DNA of 64,000 bases from assembly GCA_020352895.1 (NCBI GenBank), contig CP070685.1, positions 3,356,649 to 3,420,648 on the forward strand, written 5' to 3'. How positions within the stretch are numbered: position 1 is the stretch's first letter; each line of letters starts with the position of its first letter. This stretch comes from Phycisphaerales bacterium. GTDB lineage: Bacteria; Planctomycetota; Phycisphaerae; UBA1845; G020352895. The notes under the pieces are model-generated. The model was not told the origin of the DNA and did not search any database. It saw nothing but the letters and a program-made list of their open reading frames with translations. Shown piece by piece: positions 5,065 to 55,645 of this stretch. The position numbers and the translations under genes are program-made.

Positions 5065-5309
5065 CCGCTGCAGTTGACTGCCTGGGAATACGCTCGGCAA
5101 CTCGAACACGCTACCATCGCCTGACGGCCCCTCGTCGTTGAGACACGAGCCGCCGGTTGGAAGCAGCCCGCGCCTGGTGTACTCTGCATCGCGTTAGCGC
5201 ATGACATTGTGTGTATGGCGTGATCCCTGAGCGACTGACGTCTCTGGGACTCCGCACCGAAATCGCGCCGTTGTGCTCCGCTGCCCATAGGCCCATGGGA
5301 GGACGTAGT

Positions 5310-17083: not shown

Positions 17084-17319
17084 TTCAAAGGGGGCCAAAG
17101 GGGGGGCCTTGACTGCCGGCCGACTCGGTTGACGGCCGCGTTCCCCGCTACGTAGAATCCCAGCCGCTTGATCGCCGGCGGCAAGCAGCCGAGCAGACCG
17201 TCGGCAAGTGTTTCGTTGCGGTCGTGTTGCCGTCGGAGAGCCCGTACCCAGGTAAGGCCGGTGATAGCCCCGGCAGTCGCCAGGCAGGCGACGCCTGAAC
17301 GGGCGTGCTGCCTCGCGTA

Positions 17320-18636: not shown

Positions 18637-18785
18637 ACTGGGACGCCGGAGCCCTGTGATGGACAGCCTCCCAGTCCGCGACGGCCTTGTTCTCACCATT
18701 GCAGGCGGAGCCGCCGCGATCATTGCTGCCGGGCGTACCCGCCCTGCTTGCGGTTACATCAGAGCGTGGTCCTAGGAGATGGACG

Positions 18786-28700: not shown

Positions 28701-29177
28701 AACGCCATCATCCGCTCTGCTTGCGACCCAGCCTCCGAATATGCCCGCAGACGCGGCGTGACTCTCCGCCTCGACTTGGCTGACGCTGTCAAGCGCGTTC
28801 CGGCGGACGCGACCGCCATGGGACAGGTCATGGCGAACCTGATCTACAACGCTGTCCAGGCTTCAGACCGGGGAGCGACTGTCATCGTTCAGGTTCGGCA
28901 AACCCCTCTGGCTACCCGTGTCGTGGTTCGCGACAGCGGCTGCGGAATGACCGAGGAGCAGCGCCGAAAAGCCTTCGACCCCTTCTACACCACTCGCCTC
29001 CACGAGGGCGGAACCGGCCTGGGCCTGAGCATCTGTCACAGCATTGTTAGCGACCACGGGGGAACGATTCACCTCGAGAGTGAACCCGGCGCTGGGACCA
29101 CCGTAACCGTGGAACTGCCCATGCAGGTTGCCGCGCAGCAGAATGGAGACTCCCATGTCAAAAGTGCTGGTAGTTGA
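25773..29177 (+). CDS. multi-PAS/GAF sensor histidine kinase
   Basis: There are several PAS/PAC-like repeats (e.g. W..GD....LGYEPGEF, E.RFR.LYE.SP.GY) and a GAF-like segment. The HisKA H-box is FAAGIAHEMNNPL. The HATPase_c boxes are VRDSGCGM and GGTGLGLSICHSIV. No TM segments are seen. The exact start is uncertain. Confidence 0.85.
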   Translation: MTTQRDRHASDDHAADGVESEPQAPPTQGTTGPAKDKQALPRETAAQRPTEDMLRESAQRFQIAAQCTADLIYEWDVTSDRLEWYGDIDAILGYEPGEFPRTLGAWQESIHPDDAHRLAVDVEHRRENADPFCTEYRIHHKDGSWRYWTDRSAAVMDDQGKPRRFIGACTDVTERKKAEEILLESEERFRILYERSPLGYQSLDEDGRIIELNSAWLETLGYEREDVLGRWFGDFLTPEYVPHFRRNFPCFKAAGKIHGIQFEMIRKDGSHIHVEFDGRIGHDEHGEFKQTHCILRDITERTRAQEALLRSNRRIANILESISDGFFTLSDKLVVTHFNKAAERLLSRSSKEVLGRKLLEAFPEAKGSIFERKYTEAVREKKTLSFEAYFGVAPYENWYDVRVYPYEDGISVYFRVTTDRKRSEEIFKEGEQKYRQLFTTVPDAIMVFDAETRHFIDVNEAAVRLYGYTREEFLQLTHSHITAEHIASEQSILETLNGARSGVPLRYHKKKDGTVFPVEISAGTLGLGGRRMIYGVIRDIGARKRVEREREATIELFRLVNEAKSSRELVATATDFLKDWLGCSAVGIRLRDGDDFPYHETRGFPKEFVLAENKLCHADAQGNILRDAEGNPVLECMCGNVLAGRFDPSKPFFTERGSFWTNSTTHLLATTSEADRLARTRNRCNGQGYESVTLIPLRLGDVTFGLLQFNDERQGLFSPETISLLERLADQLAIGLSQRLGAEALRESEDRYRNLVECAEDSIYTISPEGIITSLNSAFETITGWPRDQWIGRSFSELLHPEDRNLSAQMLKAVLRGETPPTHEVRIRTKSGDHLVGEFTETLHTRGNKVVGVLGIARDITARKRAEEELARYHDQLEDLVRDRTTELQASQERLRRSERLASLGTFAAGIAHEMNNPLGLMKLEIARALQTLDNPASLRHILEAANTQVSRCGRVVENILLFARKPRPIKGPADLNAIIRSACDPASEYARRRGVTLRLDLADAVKRVPADATAMGQVMANLIYNAVQASDRGATVIVQVRQTPLATRVVVRDSGCGMTEEQRRKAFDPFYTTRLHEGGTGLGLSICHSIVSDHGGTIHLESEPGAGTTVTVELPMQVAAQQNGDSHVKSAGS

Positions 29178-30617: not shown

Positions 30618-31781
30618 CTAGGCGGGTGCTGTATCCCGGCACGCAGACATGACCAGCTCGGAGATCTCCTCGACGCGCCCGTCCCAGCCCTCCCCGGCCA
30701 CGAATGAGGCCCGCCATCGGCGACGCTCAGGCGAGTCCGACGCCACAGCTTCCTGACAGGCGGCCACGAAGGCCTCAGCCGAATCGGCGATCCGGACGTG
30801 TGGTTCGTAGACGCGAACTTCCGGCAGTGGAGTCGACACCACTGGCAGACCGGCCGCCAGATACTCCCGCAACTTGATCGGATTCACGTGCCGCGTCAGC
30901 TCGTTCGCCACGAACGGAATCACGGCCACGTCGAAACCCCGACAATAGCCCGGCAGCTCATCGTAGCTCACCCGTCCGGTCAAATGCACGTTCGGCCGCC
31001 TTCCCAGCCCGGAGACATCACACCCCGCTGCGCCGATCAACACGAATGACCAGTTCGGCCGCAGATCGGCCAACTCTCGCATCAGATCCATGTCGAACCA
31101 GTCGCTGATCAAACCGAAGAATCCGATCACCGGCCGCGGGAGATCAGCAAGCAGTCTCGGAATGCTCGTGTCTCCCATCAGAGCCTTACCGAAATGGTCC
31201 ACATCCACTCCGTGCCGGATCAGGTGCGTCCGCGGATGCAGATGCCGCTTGGCCTCATACAAGCCTTCTGCCGATGTCAGGACAATGTCGCTCTTACCGA
31301 TCAGTTCGCGCTCCAGCCGCCGAACCAATTCCCCATCATAACCAGCGAACTCGCTGAACTCGTCCACGCAATAATAAACCACTACCTCTTCACTGAGAGA
31401 GTCGATCAGATCCGCCACGTCCGGCGCGAAGCTCCATACCTGTATCGGCCGTCGCGGCCAGCCCCGCATCGCACGGCGAATCTGATGAAGAACCATCTTT
31501 CGATTGATGCCGCGGATGGCTGGTGAGCCTGGGACGGGAACAAGCATAGGCGTCATCGTGGTGATACCGTCAGAGACGCGCCGGCTTCCGCAAGTCACGC
31601 TGCTTAACGTGCGGACCGAATGCAGCACATCGTGCATGTTCGGCCGGGGCAGTCTCGAGCCGTGGTAGTTCACCCACAGGACCTCGTTCTCCGCGGCCAG
31701 CCGGCGCATGACCTGGTGCTTGCTCGTGGGATCAATGCCCCAGGAACTGGCCAGGCAGATAATGTTGCGCCCGCGGATCAT
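30618..31781 (-). CDS. glycosyltransferase family 1 protein (TuaH-like) of the EPS locus
   Basis: The start MIRGRNIICLASSWGIDPTSKHQVMRRLAAENEVLWVNYHG is typical. There is a 4-bp overlap (ATGA) with the upstream GT gene. The C-terminal region is a GT-B half. Confidence 0.75.
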   Translation of the reverse strand: MIRGRNIICLASSWGIDPTSKHQVMRRLAAENEVLWVNYHGSRLPRPNMHDVLHSVRTLSSVTCGSRRVSDGITTMTPMLVPVPGSPAIRGINRKMVLHQIRRAMRGWPRRPIQVWSFAPDVADLIDSLSEEVVVYYCVDEFSEFAGYDGELVRRLERELIGKSDIVLTSAEGLYEAKRHLHPRTHLIRHGVDVDHFGKALMGDTSIPRLLADLPRPVIGFFGLISDWFDMDLMRELADLRPNWSFVLIGAAGCDVSGLGRRPNVHLTGRVSYDELPGYCRGFDVAVIPFVANELTRHVNPIKLREYLAAGLPVVSTPLPEVRVYEPHVRIADSAEAFVAACQEAVASDSPERRRWRASFVAGEGWDGRVEEISELVMSACRDTAPA

Positions 31782-33028
31782 ACCGCCACCTCTGCTGTCA
31801 CCGAGCGACCGACCAGAACGTCCTTTGCGGCCGCCCGCCGGGTCTCCAGTACGCAGGGTCCCAGAAGGATGCGCTCCATCCGCTCCAACTGCTCCGGCCA
31901 ACTGAAGTTCTCCCTTACCCAGGCTTGGGCCGCCAGACCCTCCTGCTCGGCATAGCTGTCCACGACCAGCAACTGCTCCAGCGTCGAGATCCACTCCTCC
32001 CGCGTGTCCGCCACGGCGAGCCCCGGCAGAGATTCTTCTGCAATGCCTCTGGCCGCATCGCGGCTTGCCACTACCGGCCGGCCGCAGGCCATCCCCTCCA
32101 GCACCTTGTTCTGCAGCCCCCGGGCGACGCGCAAGGGAGCGATGACTACGCGCGCCCCGCGGAGATAGCTGACCACGTCTGGCACGCGGCCGGTCACCAT
32201 GATGCCCGGACGGTCTCCAAGCCGACTGACGCGCCTGCGAGGGTTACGCCCCACGATGATCCACTCCGCCTCGGGCACGCGACGCTGGAGCGCCGGCCAT
32301 ACGGAGTCCGCGAACCAGCAAACGGCGTCCTCGTTCGGCCAGTAGTCCATAGCACCCACGAAGGCGATGACCGGCTCACGAGCCGGCACCCCGCAACCCG
32401 CCTGCTGCGCCGTCTCCACCCCGTTGCCGACAACGTGAATATTCGCCTTGTCCAGGCGGGCGCGTAGACCGGACGCCTCGTGTCGGGTGATGAGAGTGAC
32501 CGCATCGAACTGGTCAACCTGAGCCATCTCCAGTTCAGCCACGCGGCGGTGTTCCCAGGCGTACAGCCACCGCGCAGGAGCATGGCGCCGCCTGGCATAG
32601 TCGCGCCACTTGAGACTATCCAGGTCGCAAAGGTCCAGACATCGCCGCCGGGCCCGAGCCCGAAGGCCGTATGGCCCCATGCCCGCCCCAAAACACAGCA
32701 CCGCGTCGAAATCAGTCCGCCGGGACCAATGATCCACAACCCCCTTCATCCTGGTGCTTTCCAGGTAACCCTCGCTCACGCTGCGGCTGCGCAGCAAGTT
32801 GACCAGCCCCTTGGCCGCGGACCACCAAGGCGATAACGGCACCGGCTCGAACTGCGCGCACATGCGTGCGCAGTCCCCGACGTGCGCCCAGTCTGCCAAG
32901 TCATCCACGAAACATGCACACCAGACTTCATGCCGTTCGGCCAGAAAGGCAAACTGATGAGACGTGCGAATCTTGTCCCCTCTCTCTGGGGGGTAAGGCA
33001 TTCGTGGGTAGATCAGCAGCAGCCTCAT
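31778..33028 (-). CDS. sugar transferase of the PEP-CTERM/EpsH1-associated type (TIGR03087-like GT)
   Basis: The N-terminus MRLLLIYPRMPYPPERGDKIRTSHQFAFLAERHEVWCACFVDDLADWAHV matches the characteristic start of that family. The longer 525-aa ORF extension is Arg/Ala/Gly noise. Confidence 0.8.
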   Translation of the reverse strand: MRLLLIYPRMPYPPERGDKIRTSHQFAFLAERHEVWCACFVDDLADWAHVGDCARMCAQFEPVPLSPWWSAAKGLVNLLRSRSVSEGYLESTRMKGVVDHWSRRTDFDAVLCFGAGMGPYGLRARARRRCLDLCDLDSLKWRDYARRRHAPARWLYAWEHRRVAELEMAQVDQFDAVTLITRHEASGLRARLDKANIHVVGNGVETAQQAGCGVPAREPVIAFVGAMDYWPNEDAVCWFADSVWPALQRRVPEAEWIIVGRNPRRRVSRLGDRPGIMVTGRVPDVVSYLRGARVVIAPLRVARGLQNKVLEGMACGRPVVASRDAARGIAEESLPGLAVADTREEWISTLEQLLVVDSYAEQEGLAAQAWVRENFSWPEQLERMERILLGPCVLETRRAAAKDVLVGRSVTAEVAV

Positions 33029-33033
33029 CTTCT

Positions 33034-34137
33034 CTAACCCGGAACCCACCCGGCCAGCCACGCTCCCAACGGCCGGGTTATAAGCAGAGGAAGACGCCGC
33101 CACGTGCGGATGGCCCACTGCAGACGGCTGCTGTCCGGCGTCAGATCGGCCGCCTGCGCTCCGGGTCGCACCCACACCTGGTACCGAAGCGGCACCGGCT
33201 GGAAGCCCTGATGACGCTTGAAGTCGAACGAGCCATGGTTGCCCACGCGGGACCGCCCGAAATCGAAACGCCTCAGCCCTGCGCGCACGCCCCACTCCAT
33301 GGCCGTCAGGTACAGGAAGTTGTTGGGGCTGCACCGCTCCAGCCGCTCGTCGCATCCTGCAAAGTACGGCATCAGCGTGTCATTGTGTATGAACGAGACG
33401 AGACCGGCCGCGGGCCGCCCCTCATGGCGCACCAGGGATACGACGTGGCGCGCCGGTGTGCCGCGGATGAGCCGCTCGAAGAAGCCGTACGGATAGTTGG
33501 GGGATCCCAGCCTGCGCATGCTGCGGGCGTACAGCTCCCAAACCTGCCTGAGATTGGCATCAGCAAACTCAACCGTCAGCTTGTGCTTATCGCGGGCGTT
33601 GCGTGCCGCCGCTCGGGCCTTGCGCGGCAAAGCGGCCAGCACGTCCGCCTCCGCCAGCGGGAGCGGCTTCTGAAATGCAACATAGCGGTCCTCTACGGTG
33701 GTCAACTCCGGCCAGAGTGGACGCACGCTGCGAAGGTCCACCTGCCGCACGCCGTGCTCGGCAGCCAACTCCTTCATGGCTCCCAGAAGCAACGCGGCAG
33801 CCTCTTGGAACTCGACCACCGCCCCGCCGTACACGGCGTACGGAACGCTGACTAGCAGCCTGCCTGCCAGCGGAGTGCGTACCAGAAACAGCGGGAGCAC
33901 GCCGACTATTCTCTCGCCCTGAAAGGCCGCGAAGTAGAACGGCTGATGACCGAACGTCTCTGCGACGGCCCGCCGCCACGCCCACGTGTGAAAGAATGTG
34001 CCTTCCGGATGTCTCTTGACATAGGCGTCCCAGCGATCCGCATCCTCGTGTCCGGCCATGTGGACACGGACAATCGGCCGGGAGGCTGGGTGCGGAGGTG
34101 TCGGCCGCGTGCTGGGCGCCTCGAGTGTTTCAATCAC
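33034..34137 (-). CDS. FemAB-family acyltransferase, PEP-CTERM-locus type (TIGR03019-like)
   Basis: WDAYVKRHPEGTFFHTWAWRRAVAETFGH, VGVLPLFLVRTPLAG..VSVPYAVYGG and RRFDFGRSRVGNHGSFDFKRHQGFQPVPLRYQVW. Confidence 0.8.
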   Translation of the reverse strand: MIETLEAPSTRPTPPHPASRPIVRVHMAGHEDADRWDAYVKRHPEGTFFHTWAWRRAVAETFGHQPFYFAAFQGERIVGVLPLFLVRTPLAGRLLVSVPYAVYGGAVVEFQEAAALLLGAMKELAAEHGVRQVDLRSVRPLWPELTTVEDRYVAFQKPLPLAEADVLAALPRKARAAARNARDKHKLTVEFADANLRQVWELYARSMRRLGSPNYPYGFFERLIRGTPARHVVSLVRHEGRPAAGLVSFIHNDTLMPYFAGCDERLERCSPNNFLYLTAMEWGVRAGLRRFDFGRSRVGNHGSFDFKRHQGFQPVPLRYQVWVRPGAQAADLTPDSSRLQWAIRTWRRLPLLITRPLGAWLAGWVPG

Positions 34138-34154
34138 CGTGGGCCGTCCCCCGT

Positions 34155-35024
34155 CTAACGGTAGTAGTTGTAGTACCGATCGTAGTAGTAGCCGTAAGCC
34201 CCCGCGTCATCGTGCCGCCCCAAGGCCACACAGCCAAGGATATTTACGTTGTTGGCTTGCAACTGTTTGACGGCACGCTTGGCCATGGGTTCGTGCGTAT
34301 GGTGCATGCGCACGATCATGATGACCCCGTAGCAGTTCTGGCCGATGATTCCTACGTCCGCCACTGTGTTTACCGGCGGGGTGTCCACCAGCACATAGTG
34401 GAAGCGCTTGCGGAGATCGTCAAAGACATTCTGGGCAACGGCGGAGCTCAGAATCTCCGCTGCGTTCTCATCACCCATGTTTCCGGGCGCAAGATAGCTC
34501 AGGTTGGGGGTCAAAGACCGGAGAGGCAGGCAGGGAAGATCTTCGCGAATCATGTCCGCTAGCCCTTGCTCCGGCGGCAGGCTCAGCATCTGCGACAGGC
34601 AGCCGCGGCGCACGTCACCATCCACCAGACAAACTCGCAGGTGCTTGAGCTCCGCCAGGGCGAAGGCCAGATTGACCGTGGTCAGGCTCTTCCCTTCGCG
34701 GGGCGCGCTGCTTGTGACCGCAATCACGCGGTGCTCGTTGTCGGGATTCTGATTTAACAGACGCGTACGCAGTGCGCGAAACTGCTCGGCTTCCATTCCC
34801 TCGCTCTGACGCACGGTCACAATGCGCTCGTCGAGCCCCGGCATGCTGGCCAGGATCGTGTGGGCTCGGTCTTCACCGGTGGATGCCTCGTCCCGCTCGC
34901 CGCCCAAAAGCCCGCCAAACGTGGGGACATCGACGATGGGCGCGTCCTCGGACGCTGGATCGTACCTGCGCGCCGACCCACGTTCTCTTCCTGCCTTCTT
35001 CAGTGCGTCCGAAATGATTCCCAT
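34155..35024 (-). CDS. CpsD/CapB-type tyrosine autokinase (EPS co-polymerase ATPase)
   Basis: Walker A is VTSSAPREGKS, Walker A' is VCLVDGDVRR and Walker B is YVLVDTPP. The C-terminal tyrosine cluster is AGAYGYYYDRYYNYYR. Confidence 0.85.
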   Translation of the reverse strand: MGIISDALKKAGRERGSARRYDPASEDAPIVDVPTFGGLLGGERDEASTGEDRAHTILASMPGLDERIVTVRQSEGMEAEQFRALRTRLLNQNPDNEHRVIAVTSSAPREGKSLTTVNLAFALAELKHLRVCLVDGDVRRGCLSQMLSLPPEQGLADMIREDLPCLPLRSLTPNLSYLAPGNMGDENAAEILSSAVAQNVFDDLRKRFHYVLVDTPPVNTVADVGIIGQNCYGVIMIVRMHHTHEPMAKRAVKQLQANNVNILGCVALGRHDDAGAYGYYYDRYYNYYR

Positions 35025-35030
35025 GACACC

Positions 35031-36839
35031 TCAAACCGTATCGCTGACGGCCCTTTCACCGAGGCGATCGCCCGCGTGCCAGGCCAAGTGCGACCTCCAG
35101 CGCGACCACGTCGCAGGGTGCTCGATGCTGGTATAGGCCGCGTACGCCGACAGGCCGGTCACCAGAATCAACAGTGCGGCCAGAGCCGGTTTGAGCACGA
35201 CCTGGCGCACAAATCGAGACCGACGTTCCGCAGGAGTCAGAATCTCGCCAATGGTCTCCAGGATGGGCAGCCCGGTTGCCCGAACCACTTGGTTGACTGT
35301 GCGGAACTTACGATCCATCAGTTCGGCCAGCAGAACCACGCCGACGCCGACGCCCAGAGCTAGCAGCACACTCAACATCACCACCATGCTGAATCGCGGG
35401 GAAACCGGCCGACTGCTCGGGCTGGCCGGTACCACCACCGAGAAGCCCATGTCCTTGCTGTGCAATTCCACGTCGATGGTCCGCTCCAACTCGTCGAATC
35501 GGTCCGCCCACGTCTTGACCTGGCTCCGGGCCCGCTCCAACTCGGCGCGAATCTGCTCGTATTCCCGCTGCCGCTCGAAGATGCTGGCCCGCATCTGCTC
35601 AAGCGATGCGATCTGCTGCTCGACGGCCTTGCGGTCCTCCTCAATTCGCTGCCGGTTGGCTTGCAGTGAGGAGATCTCCAGCTCCACTCGGGACTTCTCC
35701 ATGTCCCAGATCTCCTCGGCCACATCCGAGCGATGTTCATCCCGACCGCGTGCCGAAACGATGGCCACGGCCGTCTCACGCCTCACGCGCTCCGGCTCGT
35801 TCGCAAGAGCCTCGGCCGCCGCCCGCATACCCTGACGCAGAGCTTCGATCCGCGGGTGCTGGTCCGTCATACGCCGCGTGAGCTGCAGATCGGCAATATC
35901 CGTCTCGAACTGCCGGATGCGGCGTTCCAGGTCCGCACGGCGCGGGTTCGGAACAGTCTCCTGTGCCGGCCCTGTCTCCGGAAACGCGGAGTCCTGAGGT
36001 GCCACCAGGGGGGCTCCCCCTATAAACGCTTCTCGGCTGGCGATTTCTGCCTCCAACTCCCAGGCTCGGCGCTCCAGCTCGTCCCCATTGTTCTCCAGCA
36101 GCGCGACCTTCTCGGCGATCGTGCCCGGCCGACTCGGATCGATCCCCGGGTACTCGATTTCGAAGCGTAACATCTCCTCGGCCAGTCTGGCTTCCTCAGC
36201 CTGGCTCTCGTCCAGTTGGCGCCGGTAGTAGGCTCGCGCGTCTTCCAGCAGATTCATGATCCGCGCCCGCGTGCGGCGGAGGTAGGCGTCGCGAACTCGC
36301 TCCACCAACAGACGCGGCGTCTCTGCGTTGTCTGCCGTATAAGTAAGCTCAATCTGGTCCAGATCATCTGTCCGAAGATGGAAGCTCCAACCCAGCCCGG
36401 CGGCGTAAGACTTGGCCAGATCGCGACGCATCCGCTCTCCCTCGGGCGCCAGTTCGCCGTTGGTATCTCGCGGGTAGTCACGGGCCCAGCCAAGGTCATC
36501 CACCACCTCGCACCACAAGTCGGGGTCAACGATGTCGAAGCTGAAGGACCACAGCAGCGCCTTGAACTTGTGCGGGCTCCCTTCGCGCGCCAGCCGGGAT
36601 GTGGCCACATCCGTCCGCCGCTCGAACACAGTCGTCGCTTTGTATTTCCTCGGAAGACGATGACTGAACACCAGGGCTGCCGTCAGCGTCAGGCAGAACG
36701 GGACGAAGAGCATCCACTTGCGCAACATCAGGATGCGCAGCAGCTCCATCACCGTGTGGCGCATGTCGGCCCAGCCCGACTCTCCGGTCACCGGGGAGCT
36801 ACGAGCCTCATAGCCTGCCGGTTGTTTGCCCTCGAGCAT
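35031..36839 (-). CDS. polysaccharide chain-length determinant (Wzz/GumC-like, PEP-CTERM-locus type)
   Basis: The N-terminal TM is followed by RKYKATTVFE. A long coiled-coil periplasmic domain follows. The C-terminal TM is MVVMLSVLLALGVGVGVVLLAELMD. It lies 6 bp upstream of the kinase gene. Confidence 0.8.
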   Translation of the reverse strand: MLEGKQPAGYEARSSPVTGESGWADMRHTVMELLRILMLRKWMLFVPFCLTLTAALVFSHRLPRKYKATTVFERRTDVATSRLAREGSPHKFKALLWSFSFDIVDPDLWCEVVDDLGWARDYPRDTNGELAPEGERMRRDLAKSYAAGLGWSFHLRTDDLDQIELTYTADNAETPRLLVERVRDAYLRRTRARIMNLLEDARAYYRRQLDESQAEEARLAEEMLRFEIEYPGIDPSRPGTIAEKVALLENNGDELERRAWELEAEIASREAFIGGAPLVAPQDSAFPETGPAQETVPNPRRADLERRIRQFETDIADLQLTRRMTDQHPRIEALRQGMRAAAEALANEPERVRRETAVAIVSARGRDEHRSDVAEEIWDMEKSRVELEISSLQANRQRIEEDRKAVEQQIASLEQMRASIFERQREYEQIRAELERARSQVKTWADRFDELERTIDVELHSKDMGFSVVVPASPSSRPVSPRFSMVVMLSVLLALGVGVGVVLLAELMDRKFRTVNQVVRATGLPILETIGEILTPAERRSRFVRQVVLKPALAALLILVTGLSAYAAYTSIEHPATWSRWRSHLAWHAGDRLGERAVSDTV

Positions 36840-36931
36840 CCGAATCTCTCATTTGGCGTTGGGGGCCAGTCGTGTTCTCTGCTCCATCCCCCGTCCGACA
36901 GGGGGCCCCGGCGTGCCGCCTCCATCCGCCG

Positions 36932-37771
36932 TCATCGCAGGAGCCTGCCGGGCCGGATTAGGTTGACGTTGGTGTCTCCGTCATCGTCGCCGTTAAAGTG
37001 CTCGTCGTAATCGTCTTGAGCATCCAGGAAGCGTGCCGGCATCTCATAGGCCTCGAGCGCTGGAGTGATGGGGAACAGGAGCTCACGAAGCCTCAATCCC
37101 AGCCATCCCAGCGGCGTCGGTGGCACGTACAGTATGTCCCCCTCCTGCATGAGCATGTTCATCCGCATGTCGCCGTTGGTGGCCATCTTGTCGAAGTCGA
37201 CCTTCATCTCTCGGCGCTCGTCAGGATTCGGTGACGAACGAATCAGCTTGATCTCGCTCTTCCAGGCAATGAACGTCGGGTTGGCTGCCATCAGGACGTC
37301 GAAGACCGTGTCGCGCCCCGTAAACGGGTATGATCCCGGCCGGCCCACCTGACCGAAAACATAGATCTTCTTGCTGTTCTGCGTCACTACACGCACACGC
37401 AGGCTGGGATCCTTGTAGAACGGTACCAGTTGGCTCTCCACCTTGTACTTGATTTGCCGCGGCGTTAGACCGGCCACATGAACTCGATCGATCAGGTCCA
37501 GATCGATCGCTCCGTCGATGTCCACCTGCTGGCTGATCCCGTCGATCTCCAGGACGTGCGGCGACGAGAAGGAGACCACGTCGCCGGGCATGACCTTGAA
37601 GTCGCTTCCGGACGCCGCGTATGTGTGGCTCTGAAGGAAGTCCCCAACGTCGTACTTGTGATCACTGCAACCGCCAGCCACCCATAGAAGCAGCACGATG
37701 AGGGCGCGCGGACAGGCAGCACCGCTCATAGCAGTCCACATCCCCTGCCGCCGAGTCTGAGGGCCCGTCAT
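36932..37771 (-). CDS. polysaccharide export protein (Wza-like, Poly_export plus SLBB)
   Basis: The lipoprotein signal is LIVLLLWVAGGCSD. The Poly_export motif is FKVMPGDVVSF, and the SLBB-like sequences are IYVFGQVGRPGSYPF and LMQEGDILYVPP. The start is taken at ATG 37771 (GAGGGGG upstream); ATG 37741 is also possible. Confidence 0.8.
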   Translation of the reverse strand: MTGPQTRRQGMWTAMSGAACPRALIVLLLWVAGGCSDHKYDVGDFLQSHTYAASGSDFKVMPGDVVSFSSPHVLEIDGISQQVDIDGAIDLDLIDRVHVAGLTPRQIKYKVESQLVPFYKDPSLRVRVVTQNSKKIYVFGQVGRPGSYPFTGRDTVFDVLMAANPTFIAWKSEIKLIRSSPNPDERREMKVDFDKMATNGDMRMNMLMQEGDILYVPPTPLGWLGLRLRELLFPITPALEAYEMPARFLDAQDDYDEHFNGDDDGDTNVNLIRPGRLLR

Positions 37772-37932
37772 CTGCTGCCCCCTCAGGGCACAATTCCCCT
37801 CTTCCAGACTGGTCATGTTCGAACGCGTTCGGCACTCCCGGGTGCCACGAGCAGCCCGGTCCGCCCAGGCAGGCGCTTCCACGCCCGCCGGTCTGCAGGC
37901 CGGCCGTTCTGCCCATCCTCGGGTTTATCGGA

Positions 37933-37985
37933 TTGACCTAAACCTGAATTGACCTTGGCGGCTCTTTTGCGGCCGGGGCTATAAT
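37933..37985 (+). promoter_or_regulatory. divergent promoter region: direct repeat ATTGACCT x2 and a perfect TATAAT box
   Basis: ATTGACCT occurs at 37932-37939 and again at 37948-37955. TATAAT lies at 37980-37985, about 100 nt upstream of GTG 38084. The TTGACC-to-TATAAT spacing (25 nt) is non-canonical, so the repeats may be operators rather than a -35 element. Confidence 0.3.
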
Positions 37986-38083
37986 CCGCCCTGTTTTTGC
38001 CATAAAGCCGCCACCTCCAGAGACCGATATCCCTTGCGAAGGTCCGAATTCGTCTCGCCGAACCCGCGCAGGGAGCCTAGCCT

Positions 38084-41000
38084 GTGTACCGCTCATTCTT
38101 CAAGCTCCGCGAAGACCCTTTTGACAACTGCCCCGACCCGCGCTTCTTCTATAACAGTCCGGAACACGAAGAAGCCCTGGCCTCGCTGCAACATGTCGTC
38201 ACCCACCGCAAAGGGGCCATCCTGCTGACCGGCGCCCCGGGGGTCGGCAAGACCCTCGTAGCCCGCCTGGCCTTCCGCTGCTTGGGCCCCGACGTTCGCG
38301 TGGCATGGCTGCGAAACCCGCAATTGTCCGCCAAAGAGCTGCTGGTGGAGGTTTGCCGTGGACTTCACCTGGAGGCAGACGGCAAGGCCTCCCAGGTGGA
38401 TCTAATGAGCCTCCTGGAGCGCCACCTGATCAGCCGGTTTAGCAACGACACGGTGGTATGCATTGTGATCGACGAGGTCCAGGACTTCTCCTGTGAAGCC
38501 GTCCGGCTGCTCAAGACGCTCAACAACTTGGAAGTCGACGACGCCAAGTTGGTCCAATTGATCCTTCTGGGCCACCCCTCTGGCATCTCGCAAACCGTCG
38601 CCGGGCTCTGCAATGATTTTCGGGAAAGGCTCTATCGCATCCTGGAGTTGCCCCCGCTCGATCTGCACCAGACGGATGCCTACATCGCCCAGCGGCTCAC
38701 GCTGGCCGGCAATGACGGGGAAGTCTCCTTCACCGCCGAGGCCGTCGCGCGAATCCACGAGGTCTCCGGAGGCATCCCGCGCGCCATCAACAAGATCGCC
38801 GAGTTCGCTCTCCTGACAGCGTTCGCCCGTTCCGCTCACCTGGTCGGAGCCGACATCGTGGATCACGCCATCCAAGAGAATCAGCTCGATGCCGCCAAGC
38901 TGATGGAGCCGCCCGCGAACGCCGGCCCTCAATCCAACATCGGGCCCGAGCCAGCAACACGGCCGGCCGCCGAATCTGGCGGAGCGGCGCTGACAGGAGA
39001 AGTCAAGCACATGCACCGGATTGCCCGAGGCCTGCGCGCTCGAAGGCAGGACCTGCAGGATGCCGTCACGCTCGCGGACGCCACGCTGGAACACCTGCAG
39101 GATGCCAATGCCAACAGCCACCAGAACCTGACCCGGTTGGAGAATACTCTTGAGCACACCCGCCTCATGACCGAAGCGGCCCGTACGGCCGAGACGGACC
39201 TCCGCTCCGAACGTGACCGCACCGAGAGCCAACTCCGCGATCGGGCTGACGCCGTGGCTGCTCAGGTGGATGACCTCATTGGCAAGCTCGACGCCCATCT
39301 GGCGGACTTCGACCGCCTTCAGGAACGCGCGCGGCGCGCTGTGGCCGATGCCCGCGACCAGATCGCACTACTGGAACAAGCCAGCCAGCACTCGGCCGGC
39401 CTGGCAGCCAATATCGAAGAATTGCACGGTCGAGCCCGCGGGGTCGGAGACCTTTACCGCAGCCTCCAGGCCCGCCTGGACGCCACACAAGGACGCATCG
39501 ACAACGCCACCGCCACGGCCACCGACCAGATTGCTCGCCTGAACGACTACCAGACCTCCTTGAATGATCGCCTCGATCAGGCCAGAAGCGTCATCGCCGC
39601 GTTGGCCAAGGTCAGCGCCTCCGAGCTCACCATGAATGAACTCCTTCAGGCCGCCCAGGGGACTCAGGCCGGTCTTCAAGAAGCCAACAGGATGGCCCAG
39701 CAAACCCTTAGGGAAAGCGAGGACCACGTTGGGGACCTGACCGAAGCTCTCGACCGCAGTCGCCAGCATCTCAAGGACGCCGAACTCATTCTGGCCAGCG
39801 CCCGGGACGATCGGAAGGCCGCGGAGAATACGCAGCAGAACACTCGCGAACTCCTCGAGACCCTGACGGAGCAGAAAGCCCTGTTGGACGAATCCATGGC
39901 CCGCGCGGAACCAAGCGTGAGCGCTGTCCAGCAGGCCCGACTTCAGCTTGAAGATCTCCTGGCCAACAGCCGGGTCGCTGTCGACGAGCTCCAGCGCACC
40001 CGCTCCGAGAGCATCAAAGCCGCTCACGACGCCGCCGAACAGGTCCACGAACGACTCGAGAAGGCCGGCAGACAATTGACCCAGACGGCCAACGCCACGG
40101 AAACCTCTCTGGCCGCCTACGGCGCCCAAGTCAACCAAGCTACCGAGCAGAAGGCTGCCGAAGCGGCACGCATCCTCACCGCCCGGCAGAAGCAAGTCTT
40201 ACAGCAGATTCAAAACGCCGCCACCGAGGTCGAAGCCCGGGCGGCCGCCGCACGCGAGAACATCGAGGACGCCACCGCCTCCGCTCAGCAGAGAGTCTCC
40301 GAAGCGGCACAGACTCTCGCCGACCGGCGGATGGAGGCTTTGCAGCATACTCAACAAGCCGCCGCCGAAGCCGAAGACCGGGCCGCCGCCACGCGCGAGA
40401 ACATCGCCCGGGCGACAGCGTCCGCCGAACAGCAACTGCACGATGCTGGCCAGGAGGCAGCCGAGCATCTCGAGGCCAGGATCAATGCTGCCGGCAATAA
40501 GTGCCGGTCCGTTGTTTCCTCCAGTCAAGCCACTATCGCCGGAGCCACCGACCGACTCGCCAAAATCGTCAATCAAGCGGTCCAGGACGCCACTCGCCAG
40601 CTCACCGCCAGACAGCAGGAGTTGATCGACAGCGCAAACGAGGCCACCCAGGCCGCCGAAGCCGCCCTCTCCCTGGCCCTCAAACAATGCGAGACCGCGG
40701 CCGCCGAGGCCCACGCTCGCATCGCCACCGCCCGAGAAGAACTCACCGATGCAGTCGCTGAGACCCAATCGAAGATCGAGCGGCGCGTCGACCAGACCTC
40801 CCGGCAGTGCAACGACCTGCTCGCACAGGCCGAGCAGCGTCTGGGCGCCCTGGAGAGCGCCAACGCCGACGCGGCCCAAAGCGCTGACTCGATGCGTCGC
40901 CTCATCAGGCAGCTTGATGAGACCCAGGAACGAGGCCTGATCCAGCATCGGGACGCCCAGCGAGCTCACGCCGAGCTGTTCGCGCAGACCGCCCGGGCCG

Positions 41001-42331
41001 AAGACGCCCTCGGCCGCCTGGGCGAGCAGCTTCCGCACGTCGAGGAAGCTCACAAGCGCACCGGGGAACTATTACTGCGAGTCGATCACAAGGTAGATGA
41101 GCTCCAGCAGAGTCTTCAACAGGGCGACGCCTTCCTAGGGAAAGCCGCCCAATTCCTGGCAGACTTCCGCAGCTGGAAGCAGGAACTCCAGCGCGACCGC
41201 ACCCAGGCCGCCAAGGTGCTCCGAAGGGCCCGTAAGCATATCGCTAGCGTGCTGGAGGCCGAGGCACGGGCTCGTGGCACCATCCACATCGCCGACGAAA
41301 AGACCGCGAAGTTCGACGCGACCCTTCTGCGGGCCGATAAGCTCCTGTGTGAGACCGCGAACGAATTGAACCGAATGTCCGAGGCTCACGAAAAGACTGA
41401 GCAACTCCTCGATCGTGGGATGAGGCAGCTTAGCGAGCACCAAGTCAAGGCCGACGCAATCGTCACCGCCCTGGAGGAGAAGCGGCTGGCCGCCGGAAAC
41501 GCCCTTGACAAACTCGGGCAGAGCACACGGGCAGCCCTGCAAATCAACAAGATACAAGGACGTACGAGGGATGATCTTCGCAGAGAGACCAAGCGAATAA
41601 CCTCCAGGGCCTACGCCGAGAGGGAAGCGGCCCAGGAAGCACTCGGGAAGCTTCAAGATGCCACACGGCAGGCGGTAGAAGCCGTCGCCCAGCCTCGTGC
41701 TGTCTTGGAAGAGGCCATGCAGCGCGTCCCACAACTACAAAAACTCTGCAAGACGTTGCATGAGATCTACTTCAAGCTGAACACGCACGTGCCCGAAATC
41801 GTCACGCCCGGCGACTGGGAGAAGATGTGCGACAGCGCCGAAGGCGCCACCCGCCAACTCCTTATCGCCAACACTGCCCGCATTCGCCAACTCGTCGATG
41901 TGACACGACGGCTGTTTGAGAAGACGGCCGAACGCATGGCTCATTTGCAGAGCGAGAACGAGCGCGCCTCGACCCTGTGCCGCATGTTGCCCCGGCGGAT
42001 TGAGGAGTCCGCCAACCACCTGGCGGAGGGCAAGACCGAACCCAAGCAATGCACAAGAACCGGCATCCCTCAGGCGCTGGGTATCGTGAGAAGCGCCAGG
42101 TCTCGCATGCCGGCTCAAGGGGCCTCGACTGTTTCACGAATCGAAACCGATCTCACCGAGCTGTCACACCAGGAGGATTCAGAGAAGGTGGCCGCTTTGG
42201 CCAGGCGCGTCGCGAGGCTGGCTGAAATCGTCCAATCCGGCTCCGGCTTGCCGAAGCCGAGTCCAAGGGCGGATCGGGCCGAACCGGCTCCAGCCTGCGA
42301 GGCAAAAGTGGAAAGCGCTGGGACTGCGTAA
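38084..42331 (+). CDS. ExeA-like AAA ATPase (PEP-CTERM-locus type, TIGR03015-like) fused to about 1,100 aa of coiled coil
   Basis: The N-terminus is MYRSFFKLREDPFDNCPDPRFFYNSPEHEEALASLQHVV. Walker A is LTGAPGVGKT and Walker B is VCIVIDEVQD. Residues from about 300 to 1330 are Ala/Glu/Gln/Arg/Leu/Asp-rich helical repeats without any hydrophobic TM-like stretch. It is one uninterrupted ORF. Confidence 0.85.
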   Translation: MYRSFFKLREDPFDNCPDPRFFYNSPEHEEALASLQHVVTHRKGAILLTGAPGVGKTLVARLAFRCLGPDVRVAWLRNPQLSAKELLVEVCRGLHLEADGKASQVDLMSLLERHLISRFSNDTVVCIVIDEVQDFSCEAVRLLKTLNNLEVDDAKLVQLILLGHPSGISQTVAGLCNDFRERLYRILELPPLDLHQTDAYIAQRLTLAGNDGEVSFTAEAVARIHEVSGGIPRAINKIAEFALLTAFARSAHLVGADIVDHAIQENQLDAAKLMEPPANAGPQSNIGPEPATRPAAESGGAALTGEVKHMHRIARGLRARRQDLQDAVTLADATLEHLQDANANSHQNLTRLENTLEHTRLMTEAARTAETDLRSERDRTESQLRDRADAVAAQVDDLIGKLDAHLADFDRLQERARRAVADARDQIALLEQASQHSAGLAANIEELHGRARGVGDLYRSLQARLDATQGRIDNATATATDQIARLNDYQTSLNDRLDQARSVIAALAKVSASELTMNELLQAAQGTQAGLQEANRMAQQTLRESEDHVGDLTEALDRSRQHLKDAELILASARDDRKAAENTQQNTRELLETLTEQKALLDESMARAEPSVSAVQQARLQLEDLLANSRVAVDELQRTRSESIKAAHDAAEQVHERLEKAGRQLTQTANATETSLAAYGAQVNQATEQKAAEAARILTARQKQVLQQIQNAATEVEARAAAARENIEDATASAQQRVSEAAQTLADRRMEALQHTQQAAAEAEDRAAATRENIARATASAEQQLHDAGQEAAEHLEARINAAGNKCRSVVSSSQATIAGATDRLAKIVNQAVQDATRQLTARQQELIDSANEATQAAEAALSLALKQCETAAAEAHARIATAREELTDAVAETQSKIERRVDQTSRQCNDLLAQAEQRLGALESANADAAQSADSMRRLIRQLDETQERGLIQHRDAQRAHAELFAQTARAEDALGRLGEQLPHVEEAHKRTGELLLRVDHKVDELQQSLQQGDAFLGKAAQFLADFRSWKQELQRDRTQAAKVLRRARKHIASVLEAEARARGTIHIADEKTAKFDATLLRADKLLCETANELNRMSEAHEKTEQLLDRGMRQLSEHQVKADAIVTALEEKRLAAGNALDKLGQSTRAALQINKIQGRTRDDLRRETKRITSRAYAEREAAQEALGKLQDATRQAVEAVAQPRAVLEEAMQRVPQLQKLCKTLHEIYFKLNTHVPEIVTPGDWEKMCDSAEGATRQLLIANTARIRQLVDVTRRLFEKTAERMAHLQSENERASTLCRMLPRRIEESANHLAEGKTEPKQCTRTGIPQALGIVRSARSRMPAQGASTVSRIETDLTELSHQEDSEKVAALARRVARLAEIVQSGSGLPKPSPRADRAEPAPACEAKVESAGTA

Positions 42332-42403: not shown

Positions 42404-42721
42404 TTACCGACGGGTGGGGGTCATCGCCTCCACGGCCCCGTCCATCAGGCGCTGCTTCATCACGCGCCCGACTTTGAACTTGACGGTTCGTTTCGAGGGA
42501 ACGTTGACCCGCTCGAGGGTCTTGGGGTTCTGGGCGACGCGAGCCGCCCGCACCTTGCTTTCGAATACGCCGAAGTCTCGAAACTCCAAGCGGTTACCCT
42601 TGCCCAACTCCTCGATGATCGCATCCAGGAAACTCTGAATGATGCGTTTGACCAGAACTCGCTTGCAGGTGTGTGAATCCGCAATCTGGTCTACCAGTTC
42701 CTTCTTTGTGATCGTTGCCAT
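42404..42721 (-). CDS. HU/IHF family DNA-binding protein
   Basis: MATITKKELVDQIA.., GNRLEFRDFGVFESKVRAARVAQNPKTLERVNVPSKRTVKFKVG. I chose the internal ATG 42721 because the 37 upstream codons have no family support. Confidence 0.85.
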   Translation of the reverse strand: MATITKKELVDQIADSHTCKRVLVKRIIQSFLDAIIEELGKGNRLEFRDFGVFESKVRAARVAQNPKTLERVNVPSKRTVKFKVGRVMKQRLMDGAVEAMTPTRR

Positions 42722-43046
42722 GGTGTCTCTCGGTGCTTGAGGTTCCAGCTCCAAAACACCCGGTGGAGGGTGCCGCCCCTGTATGAAAGTGCAGCGTCTG
42801 GACGTGGCAAACCGCTGCATCCAAGTGCCCATGGAATTAGGGTGAATTCACGCAAGTCATCGTACTGCAACCACTTCCCGAAAGCAAGACTTTTTGAGCG
42901 GCCCGCGAGCACAGAATTCGCTCCCGTGGAGCCGCCCGGAAAAACGCCCAGCTGGAGGCATCCTTCCGCCCCAGAGCCCGGTGCCTTGAAGGGCTCCCGA
43001 AAAGCTATTCCTGTGTGACTTTAAACGCTGGAAGGCGGCAAATGCC

Positions 43047-43436: not shown

Positions 43437-43634
43437 TCCTGGCCCTCCTGGGCCAACGGATATGCAGGAGGCGCGCCTGCTCCTGCCCAGCCCCAGGTCC
43501 TAGAAGGCCATCGCTAAGCCGATGCGCAGTCAAGTCTTGCGCCCACCGGGCCCCGGGCAACACTTGCACCACTGGTAGGGCCCGTGACGCCTGCTGCCTT
43601 GCTGCAACACTTCCCGCTAGAATCGTGGGCCTTG

Positions 43635-45230
43635 ATGCCCTCGCGTTTTCCGACCAGTCCCCGTGGCCCCCGACGCTGCAGCCGCCTTGCATTGGCCTTT
43701 GCTGTCCTCCCGCTCTTTGGCTGCGCCAAACCAACGTTCTTTCCGGACGCTCCCATGGCGCGGGAAAGCATACACGGAGCCACGCATATCGCCTTCGATC
43801 TCGATGGCGATGGCTCACCCGACTACACCCAGGCCTACCGAGGCCCTGTCAAACGCGTCTTCCTCTTCCGCGCGGCGGACGATGCCAATCCGAGGCACCA
43901 CGTCGTCGACTGGGATGACCTTGATCCAGCCAACGAGCGACACCTGTTCTTGCTGCTCGACGGCGTGCCCTACGACGCGATGGCGGAACTGTGGAGCGAG
44001 GGGCGATTTCGCCTCTTTCATCGGCCGGGGTTGCTTATCAGCACACTGCCCTCTCTGACGGACCCGTCGTTCGCTCAGATTCTCCAGGCAGAACCGCCCT
44101 GCGGCTACGAATCCTGCTACTTCCAGCGTGGCCGTAACCGCCTGACCAACGGAACACAGACTTACCTGAGAGGAGACAACGAGCCGTGGAACTCGGCCCT
44201 GGATTACCGCCTCAACTTCATCGAGGACGCCATCATGTACCTCTTCCCCGGTTACGTCTTCCGACGCGAACTGGAGAACGCGCGCCGAACCCTCCTTCGC
44301 TCAGAGCGACACCATCCCGTGGTCTACCTGCTCTCGACGGACGGCCTGGGACACATGCAGAAGCGGACCGAGGTCTTGCGGTACCTTCGCCTGCTGGACC
44401 GCTGGATCGAGAGGCTAATATACGAGCAGGGCGCGCGGTTGCAGATCACCATGCTCGCCGACCACGGGAACAGCTTTGTCGCCACTGAGCCGTTCCGCCT
44501 CAAGGAACTCCTTCAGCAGGCGGGCCTTCACGCGAGCCGTTCCCTCAAGAAGCAGGGAGACGTGGTCGTTCCCGAGTTCGGCCTCATCGATTTTGCAGCC
44601 TTATACGTGTTCGACGCAAACACACTCCATCGGGTCGTTGAAGTGTGTCGCCGCGACCCCGCGGTCGAACTGATCTGCTATCGCCAGGCACAGCCGCCCG
44701 GCATCATCGTTCTGAACGGGCGGCAGCGGGCCCTGATTCATCGCGTGGAACAACCGGTTCGGTACGGGTATGTCCAGCTCTCGGGCGACCCGCTTCGCCT
44801 CGCACAGACAATAAGGAGACTTAAGCAGATCGGTCAGCTCAGCGAGGACGGCCTGGCCCACGACCGGGCATGGCTCCAGGCCACCCGCCATCATGTCTTT
44901 CCCGACCCTCTGCATCGCATCTGGCAGGCCCTGACCGAGAACACGCGGAACCCCGCAGATGTCCTGCTGAGCCTGACCCCCGGTTACCACGTCGGCGATC
45001 CTTCTCTGGACGCGTGGGCGCGGATGGAGGGCACCCACGGCGGCCTGCGTGCCGCCAGCAGCAACACCTTCATCATGTCCACCGCCCTGCAGGTCCCCCC
45101 TTGGCAGCGCCCGGCTGATGTCCTGAAACGCATTCAAGCTACTGTCGCCTGGCAGCCCCGCGTCGGCGGTTCTGCCTCACGTTCACCCGCGCATCAAAAA
45201 ACCCAGGACATCTCCCAGGTCATTCCTTAA
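43635..45230 (+). CDS. alkaline-phosphatase-superfamily lipoprotein (nucleotide pyrophosphatase/PglZ-like core)
   Basis: The lipobox is AVLPLFGCAKP. The metal-ligand and nucleophile-type motifs are LLLDGVPYD, LPSLTDPSF, LLSTDGLGHM, MLADHGNSF and MEGTHGGL. The start is set at the Met before the signal peptide. Confidence 0.65.
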   Translation: MPSRFPTSPRGPRRCSRLALAFAVLPLFGCAKPTFFPDAPMARESIHGATHIAFDLDGDGSPDYTQAYRGPVKRVFLFRAADDANPRHHVVDWDDLDPANERHLFLLLDGVPYDAMAELWSEGRFRLFHRPGLLISTLPSLTDPSFAQILQAEPPCGYESCYFQRGRNRLTNGTQTYLRGDNEPWNSALDYRLNFIEDAIMYLFPGYVFRRELENARRTLLRSERHHPVVYLLSTDGLGHMQKRTEVLRYLRLLDRWIERLIYEQGARLQITMLADHGNSFVATEPFRLKELLQQAGLHASRSLKKQGDVVVPEFGLIDFAALYVFDANTLHRVVEVCRRDPAVELICYRQAQPPGIIVLNGRQRALIHRVEQPVRYGYVQLSGDPLRLAQTIRRLKQIGQLSEDGLAHDRAWLQATRHHVFPDPLHRIWQALTENTRNPADVLLSLTPGYHVGDPSLDAWARMEGTHGGLRAASSNTFIMSTALQVPPWQRPADVLKRIQATVAWQPRVGGSASRSPAHQKTQDISQVIP

Positions 45231-53434: not shown

Positions 53435-53569
53435 GCTCCCGCATTGAAACAGCCCCACCTGCCCCGGGCAAGGCGCACGCCTGGGCCTTGTGCACATGGA
53501 GGCAACCACCGGTTGACCCGAACCCGCGTCCCGGATAGCTTCCGACGCGAGTCGGGGCAGGGATTACTG

Positions 53570-55586: not shown

Positions 55587-55645
55587 TCCTCACCTCCGCT
55601 TTTTGGTAAGCTCGTTATCGAACCCATCGCCCTGGTAGCACGCCG

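Follow-up and report, generated by a model that had tools for sequence, protein, structure and literature searches.

The window analysed here is a 64,000-nucleotide stretch of contig CP070685.1 from a Phycisphaerales bacterium (assembly GCA_020352895.1, positions 3,356,649 to 3,420,648). It contains a gene for a 1,415-amino-acid (aa) protein in which an N-terminal AAA+ ATPase head is joined through a long helical spacer to a conserved C-terminal foot. The protein is not a singular oddity of its source genome; it belongs to a large, unnamed Planctomycetota family that is widespread but unstudied, and it corresponds, in this phylum, to the short ATPase encoded within canonical XrtA/PEP-CTERM polysaccharide operons. 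With neither a signal peptide nor a transmembrane (TM) segment, it is predicted from its sequence to be soluble and cytoplasmic. We propose, with roughly even confidence, that it may act as an ATP-switched cytoplasmic tether or scaffold of the machinery for exopolysaccharide (EPS) assembly and export. The gene and the parts of its product are as follows.

38084–42331, plus strand: ATPase–coiled-coil gene, 1,415 aa, GTG start, stop codon included (read as an open reading frame, ORF)
38070–38075, plus strand: Shine-Dalgarno-like AGGGAG, 8 nt 5′ of the GTG (direct reading of the sequence)
38084–38878, plus strand: ExeA/TIGR03015-like AAA+ ATPase head, residues 1–265 (TIGR03015 and PF13401 matches)
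38231–38254, plus strand: Walker A GAPGVGKT, residues 50–57 (G50, G53, G55 and K56 invariant in the long-form alignment)
38456–38482, plus strand: Walker B VCIVIDEVQ, residues 125–133, with D130 and E131 (D130 invariant in long-form alignment A1)
38879–38998, plus strand: Pro-rich flexible linker, residues ~266–305 (prolines 276, 277, 282, 288, 290 and 294)
38999–41689, plus strand: helical spacer rod, residues ~306–1202 (3.5-residue hydrophobic period)
40142–40777, plus strand: central repeat and variable zone, residues 687–898, three ~55-aa units (repeat scores above null)
41690–42025, plus strand: conserved C-terminal coiled-coil module, residues 1203–1314 (hidden Markov model, conservation, AlphaFold2)
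42026–42169, plus strand: disordered linker, residues ~1315–1362 (AlphaFold2 confidence, pLDDT, <50 at model residues 175–220)
42170–42241, plus strand: terminal amphipathic helix, residues 1363–1386, QEDSEKVAALARRVARLAEIVQSG (AlphaFold2 model residues 220–243)
42242–42331, plus strand: Pro/Ser/Ala-rich tail, residues 1387–1415, and stop codon (composition; disordered in AlphaFold2)

The ORF is a single unbroken frame from its GTG start, and residue 1 lines up with the MY..F start of all homologues, the window protein opening with M/V-Y-R-S-F-F-K-L. Such a protein could in principle be mimicked by an error of assembly, by a frameshift that fuses a short ATPase gene to a coiled-coil gene behind it, or by a random open frame, as long spurious ORFs arise in GC-rich DNA and several opposite-strand ORFs of 100–300 aa overlap the gene; the latter are the usual by-product of 63% G+C DNA. 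However, G+C per 300-nt block of the gene is 0.66–0.81 at third and 0.31–0.55 at second codon positions, equal to that of the neighbouring genes. Since codon-position GC is flat along the ORF and matches its neighbours, neither a frameshift nor a misjoin is indicated, the two faults that a preliminary description of this stretch, made from the sequence alone, had named as its possible undoing. Furthermore, collinear full-length homologues exist (P0002, 49% identity over 98% coverage; P0003, 39% over 93%), and the head–rod–foot design recurs: 28 genomes of species representatives encode it, and 69 independent cluster representatives with 1,000 aa or more show it. On the strength of this family-wide architecture and the uniform codon-position GC, we reject mis-assembly or a chance ORF; an artefact of any kind retains next to no probability and is effectively refuted already.

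The preliminary description had placed an ExeA/GspA-type ATPase with Walker A and Walker B motifs at the N-terminus, and all three are borne out. The TIGR03015 model (XrtA/PEP-CTERM-associated ATPase) aligns end to end over residues 1–265 (model positions 1–265 of 269, E = 5.5e-54, 183.4 bits), and PF13401 (AAA_22) matches with 70.7 bits. Both models that had been suggested as a check thus match, although the first falls short of its curated cut-off of 324.5 bits, which two control proteins, one from Photobacterium (336.2 bits) and one from a gammaproteobacterial metagenome-assembled genome (369.1 bits), both pass. We therefore regard the window head as a divergent relative and not as a certified TIGR03015 member. 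The heads of other long and intermediate Planctomycetota forms score 175–264 bits against the same model. The TIGR03015-type P-loop GxxGxGKT is present as GAPGVGKT (50–57) and the DEAQ-like Walker B as IDEVQ (129–133), the key residues being invariant in alignments A1 and A3, and the DEAQ motif is invariant in 40 intermediate forms. Judged by these motifs, the AAA+ head appears catalytically intact. By sequence profile, the solved structures nearest to it are MuB (8xvb, E = 1.5e-10) and Cdc6/ORC.

The opposite end of the protein carries an equally recognisable element. Alignment of the C-termini of the first seven long homologues revealed a module of ~100 residues, at 1203–1303 in the window protein. 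A hidden Markov model (HMM) of these seven proteins matches 90 sequences of 514–1,943 aa, 25–240 (mostly 60–200) residues from the C-terminus, and after one iteration it matches 126 sequences of 511–2,137 aa, almost all 60–240 residues from the C-terminus; past iteration 2 the model drifted into generic coiled coil, and iterations 1 and 2 alone were used. Among the window protein and its full-length relatives (P0001–P0003), identity is 62–68% in the ATPase, 10–32% in the linker, 26–52% in the rod, 70–79% in the C-terminal module and 21–28% in the tail, so that conservation peaks in the module, ahead even of the ATPase; column identity rises to 0.90 in the module core of the major clade.

An AlphaFold2 run on residues 1144–1415 with an 18-sequence alignment predicts helices at 1145–1239 and 1242–1314, mostly with pLDDT >90. 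These are followed by disorder at 1318–1363, in a linker with 21–28% identity among the closest relatives, and then by the terminal helix (block-mean pLDDT 71 and 86). Counterparts of this helix occur family-wide with a consensus for each clade, SLGEIVQRNQKLNEWL.. in the major clade, LPPLIEFD.RRAA.A.RIA in another and RLA..V..L..LVE in the intermediate forms. Foldseek searches of the C-terminal model against PDB returned only extended coiled coils, with E >1, and the module is therefore a conserved coiled-coil segment and not a globular fold. In agreement with this arrangement, the AlphaFold2 model of the 514-aa homologue P0133, from 40 sequences, comprises the ATPase, a ~70-residue disordered linker, an 88-residue module helix (pLDDT ~90) and two further helices. 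The preliminary description had pictured everything behind the head as one uninterrupted low-complexity helical region ending in a Pro/Ser/Ala-rich tail. The tail is there, at residues 1387–1415, and the region is helical with a heptad period of 3.5, but it is not uniformly of low complexity, because the conserved module and the conserved terminal helix lie inside it.

Between head and foot, the Pro-rich linker is gappy and weakly conserved across the family, and the equivalent stretch is disordered in the P0133 model. The rod beyond it has the composition of a long helix. Residues 300–1350 contain 18.3% A, 10.9% L, 10.4% R, 9.3% E, 9.1% Q, 7.0% T and 6.1% D, with only 1.0% P, 3.3% G, 0.8% C and 0.2% W. 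The highest 19-residue Kyte–Doolittle mean (KD19) in the entire protein is 1.36, and there is therefore no TM segment. Hydrophobic residues recur with a period of 3.5, at a power of 5.19 compared with a mean of 0.72 and a maximum of 1.55 among shuffled sequences (0 of 1,000 reach the observed value); by segment the period is 3.5 in residues 300–600 and 900–1200 and ~3.65 in 600–900 and 1200–1380. Internal repeats lie at 687–742, 745–788 and 831–898, scoring 107 and 85 where the null does not exceed 55; they were detected by a windowed Smith–Waterman scan of the protein and missed by self-blastp and Tandem Repeats Finder. The lack of a hydrophobic segment, the scarcity of Pro, Gly, Trp and Cys and the internal repeats had all been anticipated in the preliminary description. 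No Pfam family matches the rod above threshold and no PDB sequence matches it; an Apolipoprotein-repeat match over residues 757–922 and others to Baculo_PEP_C, SMC and LmuB are all weak and compositional.

The way in which the rod changes between relatives points to a constraint on its register. Compared with P0002 and P0003, the arms at 311–680 and 901–1200 (370 and 300 residues) have no indels at all at 32–52% identity, and every indel in the rod falls within the central repeat zone, with sizes that include 7, 8, 11, 22 and 51 residues. Across 290 related and thus non-independent pairs, indels of at least 5 residues peak at 7 (121 cases), 11 (83), 18 (63) and 22 (44) residues, which is the pattern expected of a coiled coil obliged to keep register, and their hot spots lie near the linker and at 0.5–0.6 of rod length. 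In two clades the central hot spot sits about midway between the linker and the module end, which hints at a fold-back arrangement. An equal-arm fold-back hairpin is not supported, however: forms of ~1,000 aa keep the whole C-terminal arm and have lost most of the N-terminal arm, and those of ~514 aa have no N-terminal arm. The rod could be either a parallel oligomer or a hairpin.

The extent of the family was established by an exhaustive HMMER search with a head profile against 1.84 billion cluster representatives (50% identity), which gave 39,927 matches at E up to 0.001. Among the closest 151 representatives (six seed homologues counted), 69 are at least 1,000 aa long, 14 have 700–999 aa, 61 have 470–699 aa and 7 are shorter; the longest reaches 2,137 aa. 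A scan of GTDB species representatives yielded 76 loci, 28 of them with an ORF of at least 1,000 aa (maximum 1,943 aa), all labelled Phycisphaerae or Planctomycetota, and 7 additional Planctomycetota loci have forms of 474–867 aa. Outside the phylum, relatives are ATPase-only proteins of 265–432 aa (Omnitrophota, unclassified bacteria, Photobacterium and Vibrio) or, in the case of L048 and L051 from Desulfobacterota, proteins with a TM segment and a periplasmic portion. This matches the preliminary description, in which relatives were either ATPase-only or TM-bearing; all ATPase-only relatives sampled, those within the phylum included, span 265–447 aa.

The family can be recognised by a TIGR03015-like head, a TM-less helical spacer, a C-terminal module of ~100 aa lying mostly 60–240 residues from the C-terminus, and a terminal helix, each of which the window protein has. 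In 84 members, no TM-like segment follows the head (maximum KD19 1.5), and the dominant hydrophobic period of the rods is 3.6 in 59 of 69 and 3.5 in 8 of 69. The spacer between head and module ranges ~20-fold, from 72 to 1,484 aa with a mode of 900–1,100, and its length is well kept within subclades. Source annotations give the homologues generic names, 'AAA family ATPase' or 'ExeA / PIP family'; in literature and annotation we found nothing that describes the ATPase–rod–foot architecture or the function of TIGR03015, and the founding paper on PEP-CTERM does not mention the ATPase. The suggestion that the gene is something undescribed therefore stands as regards function and literature but not as regards rarity, with 69 of the 151 closest representatives at least 1,000 aa long and long forms in 28 genomes: the fusion is common in Planctomycetota, yet it bears generic names only.

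Several variants were encountered alongside the typical members. P0006 (L083), P0007 (L084) and L072 form a divergent subclade with the head–rod–foot design (1,165–1,567 aa) and a Walker B of D-Q-A-E instead of D-E-x-Q; P0006 stands 3′ of three co-directional genes without a Pfam match. Some Phycisphaerae have a distinct short paralogue of 304–447 aa (L037, L038, L040, L045–L047 and L052) with the N-terminus MYLQHYNF..PFRNTPDPRFFYETPRHNE, a Pro-rich tail and no upstream EPS genes; L047 scores 294 bits against TIGR03015. L036 and L041 look like short forms next to a wza operon but probably result from faulty assembly, the former containing a run of N that translates as XXXX and the latter a stop after 29 codons. 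In P0020 (674 aa) and P0053 (599 aa) the head begins at residues 358 and 308, respectively, indicating an N-terminal extension or a gene-call fusion.

The genomic setting links the family to EPS export, the gene having a polysaccharide-export operon as its neighbour in nearly every case. In the window, the ATPase gene is divergent from an EPS operon, which has the following features.

30618–37882, minus strand: divergent EPS operon (Pfam and NCBIfam matches)
36932–37882, minus strand: Wza-like outer-membrane polysaccharide export (OPX) lipoprotein (Poly_export/SLBB)
35031–36839, minus strand: chain-length determinant
34155–35024, minus strand: BY-type tyrosine kinase
33034–34137, minus strand: FemAB (TIGR03019, 288.6 against a cut-off of 260.35)
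31778–33355, minus strand: stp1 glycosyltransferase (TIGR03087, 361.3 against a cut-off of 316.65)
30618–31994, minus strand: further glycosyltransferase
37883–38083, no strand: shared divergent intergenic region, at least 201 bp to the longest wza ORF and ~312 bp if Wza starts at Met38

With TIGR03019 and TIGR03087 both above their cut-offs, the location is that of a PEP-CTERM/XrtA-type EPS locus, with the ATPase gene divergent from the operon and not inside it. The export, chain-length and kinase proteins also match XrtA-type models, each under its cut-off, and the Wza-like protein has a probable lipoprotein signal ending in ..WVAGGC. The shared region of about 310 bp given in the preliminary description corresponds to the Met38 start of Wza. 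Conservation of the divergent pairing with wza, which had been put forward there as a check, extends to 34 distinct contigs, all of which share the divergent Wza, chain-length determinant, tyrosine kinase, FemAB and stp1 glycosyltransferase; the Wza end lies 280–1,000 nt upstream of the ATPase start, and the proteins share merely 25–50% identity. In Photobacterium, Vibrio and other taxa the short ATPase is instead co-directional, downstream of Wza, chain-length determinant and kinase, and such a co-directional order is likewise tabulated for Rubrivivax gelatinosus (PMC3684757).

The shared intergenic region yielded no match to the sigma-70 promoter consensus. A terminator-like GC hairpin with a T-run (CGGGGCTATAATCCGCCCTG TTTTTGCC) lies there at 37974–37993 on the plus strand, ~90 nt 5′ of the ATPase start; it may act as a leader or an attenuator, or may have formed by chance.

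On the other side of the ATPase gene, the neighbours are kept in the closest relatives only and comprise an HU/IHF gene, a 548-aa protein without an assigned family, and GlmU. The HU/IHF-family gene (42404–42832, minus strand) is convergent to the ATPase gene and retained in L001 and L006; its true start is probably downstream, because the 142-aa ORF is ~40 residues longer N-terminally than its relatives of 97–102 aa. The 548-aa ORF (43584–45230, plus strand) has no Pfam, NCBIfam or PADLOC match and shares 55–63% identity with syntenic counterparts downstream of the long ATPase in the same two relatives.

Since the protein combines an apparently intact cytoplasmic AAA+ head, a hinge, a register-constrained spacer and a conserved foot with linkage to an EPS operon, a tether or scaffold is the role that we favour. 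It is from the architecture, its conservation, the cytoplasmic topology and the gene linkage that we infer a role in EPS export, an oligomeric state, a binding partner and any ATP dependence. To judge from related AAA+ proteins, the head would probably serve as a switch for ATP-dependent oligomerisation, and the Pro-rich hinge would join it to the ~900-residue helical rod; rod and foot module together could span up to ~150 nm when fully extended. The rod drifts fast in sequence and length, with indels that tend to preserve coiled-coil register, and the foot, consisting of the ~100-residue coiled coil, the disordered linker and the amphipathic helix, would form the partner-binding or self-assembly end. 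Presumably, the protein would thereby tether or scaffold the cytoplasmic face of the Wza/chain-length-determinant/tyrosine-kinase machinery, with ATP binding controlling its clustering.

A filament, a ruler or a scaffold had been considered in the preliminary description; a scaffold or tether stays the best reading, whereas a ruler is weakened by spacers of such different lengths, which lead us to disfavour a strict molecular ruler. A more ambitious version would make the protein the founding example of an ATP-switched, cytoskeletal-like coiled-coil tether reaching up to ~150 nm, in which ATP oligomerises the heads, the foot docks on the Wzc-like kinase/co-polymerase and the export machines are clustered or positioned; its reach would then be tuned as the central zone gains and loses repeats without a change of register. 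Planctomycetota are a phylum with unusual cell plans. We consider this version rather unlikely.

Several observations weigh against a tether or scaffold of the EPS machinery. The P0006/P0007/L072 subclade keeps the architecture next to other neighbours and not EPS genes, an exception to the divergent EPS pairing noted in the preliminary description. L022 has no wza within 10 kb upstream, and L018 apparently lacks an upstream wza too. No exosortase was found among the ~39 ORFs of the window that were scanned. The head's closest solved relatives are DNA-binding ATPases, and TIGR03015 itself is a hypothetical equivalog according to NCBI, with no literature found on the function of the base family. 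Finally, the 20-fold range of the spacer implies that rod length as such is not essential across the family.

The first of these observations would suit a general coiled-coil cytoskeletal or landmark protein of the Scy/FilP, crescentin or AglZ type, helping to shape, polarise or divide the cells of an FtsZ-less lineage; adjacency to the EPS operon would then reflect shared regulation or history and not a physical role in export. The very long rod with its heptad/hendecad periodicity is consistent with such a function, as are the architecture retained by P0006 and P0007 away from an EPS context and the L022 locus. The AAA+ group in which the MuB/Cdc6/ORC profile matches place the head has members that form oligomers or filaments. 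Against this, the divergent wza pairing has been held in 34 contigs while the proteins diverged to just 25–50% identity, the head is nearest to an ATPase internal to canonical PEP-CTERM EPS operons, and the constraint on rod length and sequence is weak family-wide. We view a general cytoskeletal function as doubtful.

The structural kinship of the head raises a further alternative, a nucleoid- or DNA-associated AAA+ protein, either SMC-like or a MuB/Cdc6-like loader with a coiled-coil arm, whose possible targets would be the divergent promoter region or the organisation of the chromosome. Besides the MuB, Cdc6 and ORC matches, it would accommodate the HU/IHF gene directly downstream and convergent in the window, L001 and L006, and the weak SMC and LmuB matches. 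Divergent gene pairs, moreover, often include a regulator as one partner. However, the SMC (24 bits) and LmuB (16 bits) matches cover the rod only and are expected from coiled-coil composition alone; the Pfam scan detected no DNA-binding domain or helix-turn-helix, and the HU gene is adjacent just in the three closest relatives and not in L002 or L005. There is also no split ABC-type head, and the unequal loss of arms in the ~1,000-aa forms does not fit an equal-arm fold-back. Such a function is improbable.

Even less probable is an anti-phage defence ATPase of the Lamassu type, in which a P-loop NTPase is likewise coupled to coiled coil. The PADLOC model for LmuB matches residues 320–914 (16.4 bits, E = 4.7e-4), but this match is marginal and confined to the coiled-coil rod, and does not make the protein a member of a PADLOC defence system. 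Furthermore, there are no defence-island neighbours, and the synteny with the EPS operon is stable across dozens of species, unlike that of mobile defence loci. SMC, Lamassu and defence readings were accordingly rejected as resting on compositional coiled-coil matches of 24 and 16 bits.

Elsewhere in the window, a 1,134-aa sensor histidine kinase with multiple PAS domains (25773–29177, plus strand) weakly matches PrsK, the XrtA/PEP-CTERM kinase (100 bits against a cut-off of 300); lying a few kb from the EPS operon, it could be the operon's regulator. An 847-aa protein with two tandem GT4 glycosyltransferase modules and matches to TuaC, stp2 and HpsP (18687–21230, plus strand) adjoins another glycosyltransferase (17305–18636, plus strand), and together these genes at 17305–21230 may constitute a second EPS-related cluster ~10 kb from the first. 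A gene for a 478-aa flagellin (22242–23678, plus strand) adjoins a PolX DNA polymerase/PHP gene (23779–25506, minus strand), and an 851-aa multihaem cytochrome (5211–7766, plus strand) resembles ExtM of selenite/tellurite reduction operons, with 199 bits against a cut-off of 800. Long minus-strand ORFs of 611, 354, 371 and 406 aa at 51674–57010 have no Pfam match and may be novel or spurious GC-rich ORFs.

No function has been assigned to the accessory ATPase of PEP-CTERM/XrtA-type loci. The lineage-specific version described here, conserved at both ends and evolvable in its rod, offers ways to approach it: the foot module, in which conservation exceeds that of the enzyme domain, and the putative terminal docking helix could identify the ATPase's partners. 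If a tether is indeed what the protein forms, it would reveal the cytoplasmic-side organisation of a Wzx/Wzy-type export machine and would represent a new class of coiled-coil organiser in Planctomycetota. If not, a large and easily recognised unnamed family remains, which current annotation labels merely 'AAA family ATPase'.

Among known systems, the short TIGR03015 ATPases (~265–390 aa) are the closest. Their whole model aligns to residues 1–265, the P-loop and DE(A/V)Q motif are present, and the linked genes are the same, namely Wza-type export protein, chain-length determinant, tyrosine kinase, FemAB (TIGR03019) and stp1 (TIGR03087). The window protein differs in its score (183 bits against the 324.5 cut-off, compared with 336 and 369 for true members), in being encoded divergently from the operon and not within it, and in having ~1,150 extra residues that make up linker, rod, conserved foot and terminal helix. 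With the ExeA/GspA ATPases of type II secretion and the MshM-type ATPases it shares an AAA_22-type cytoplasmic head. ExeA helps assemble the secretin, and ExeA/GspA and the proposed tether would both be accessory to an outer-membrane export channel. ExeA/GspA proteins have a TM segment and a periplasmic peptidoglycan-binding domain, whereas the window protein has no TM segment (maximum KD19 1.36) and no peptidoglycan-binding Pfam match, and is predicted to be entirely cytoplasmic; among the flanking genes there is neither GspB/ExeB nor a type II secretin.

SMC, MukB and Rad50 likewise couple an ATPase to a very long coiled coil, and the central variable zone of the window rod adds to the likeness. 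The AAA+ head of the window protein is N-terminal only, in contrast to a split ABC head, and the SMC model TIGR02168 reaches 23.9 bits against a cut-off of 567.35, over rod residues 330–596 only. A compulsory SMC-like fold-back is also unlikely, because short and intermediate forms do without the N-terminal arm altogether.

In overall plan, the window protein recalls a third group. This group consists of long coiled-coil proteins with an N-terminal regulatory domain (AglZ and FrzS of Myxococcus) and of coiled-coil cytoskeletal proteins (Scy/FilP of Streptomyces and crescentin). Here too a coiled coil of hundreds to more than 1,000 residues comes after a small N-terminal globular domain, and heptad and non-heptad periodicities are mixed; FrzS is linked to EPS production. 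The likeness is one of kind only. There is no sequence relationship, since neither PDB nor Pfam offers a match to the rod; the head is an AAA+ ATPase and not a receiver domain, and it is the conserved C-terminal foot and terminal helix that set the window family apart and define it.

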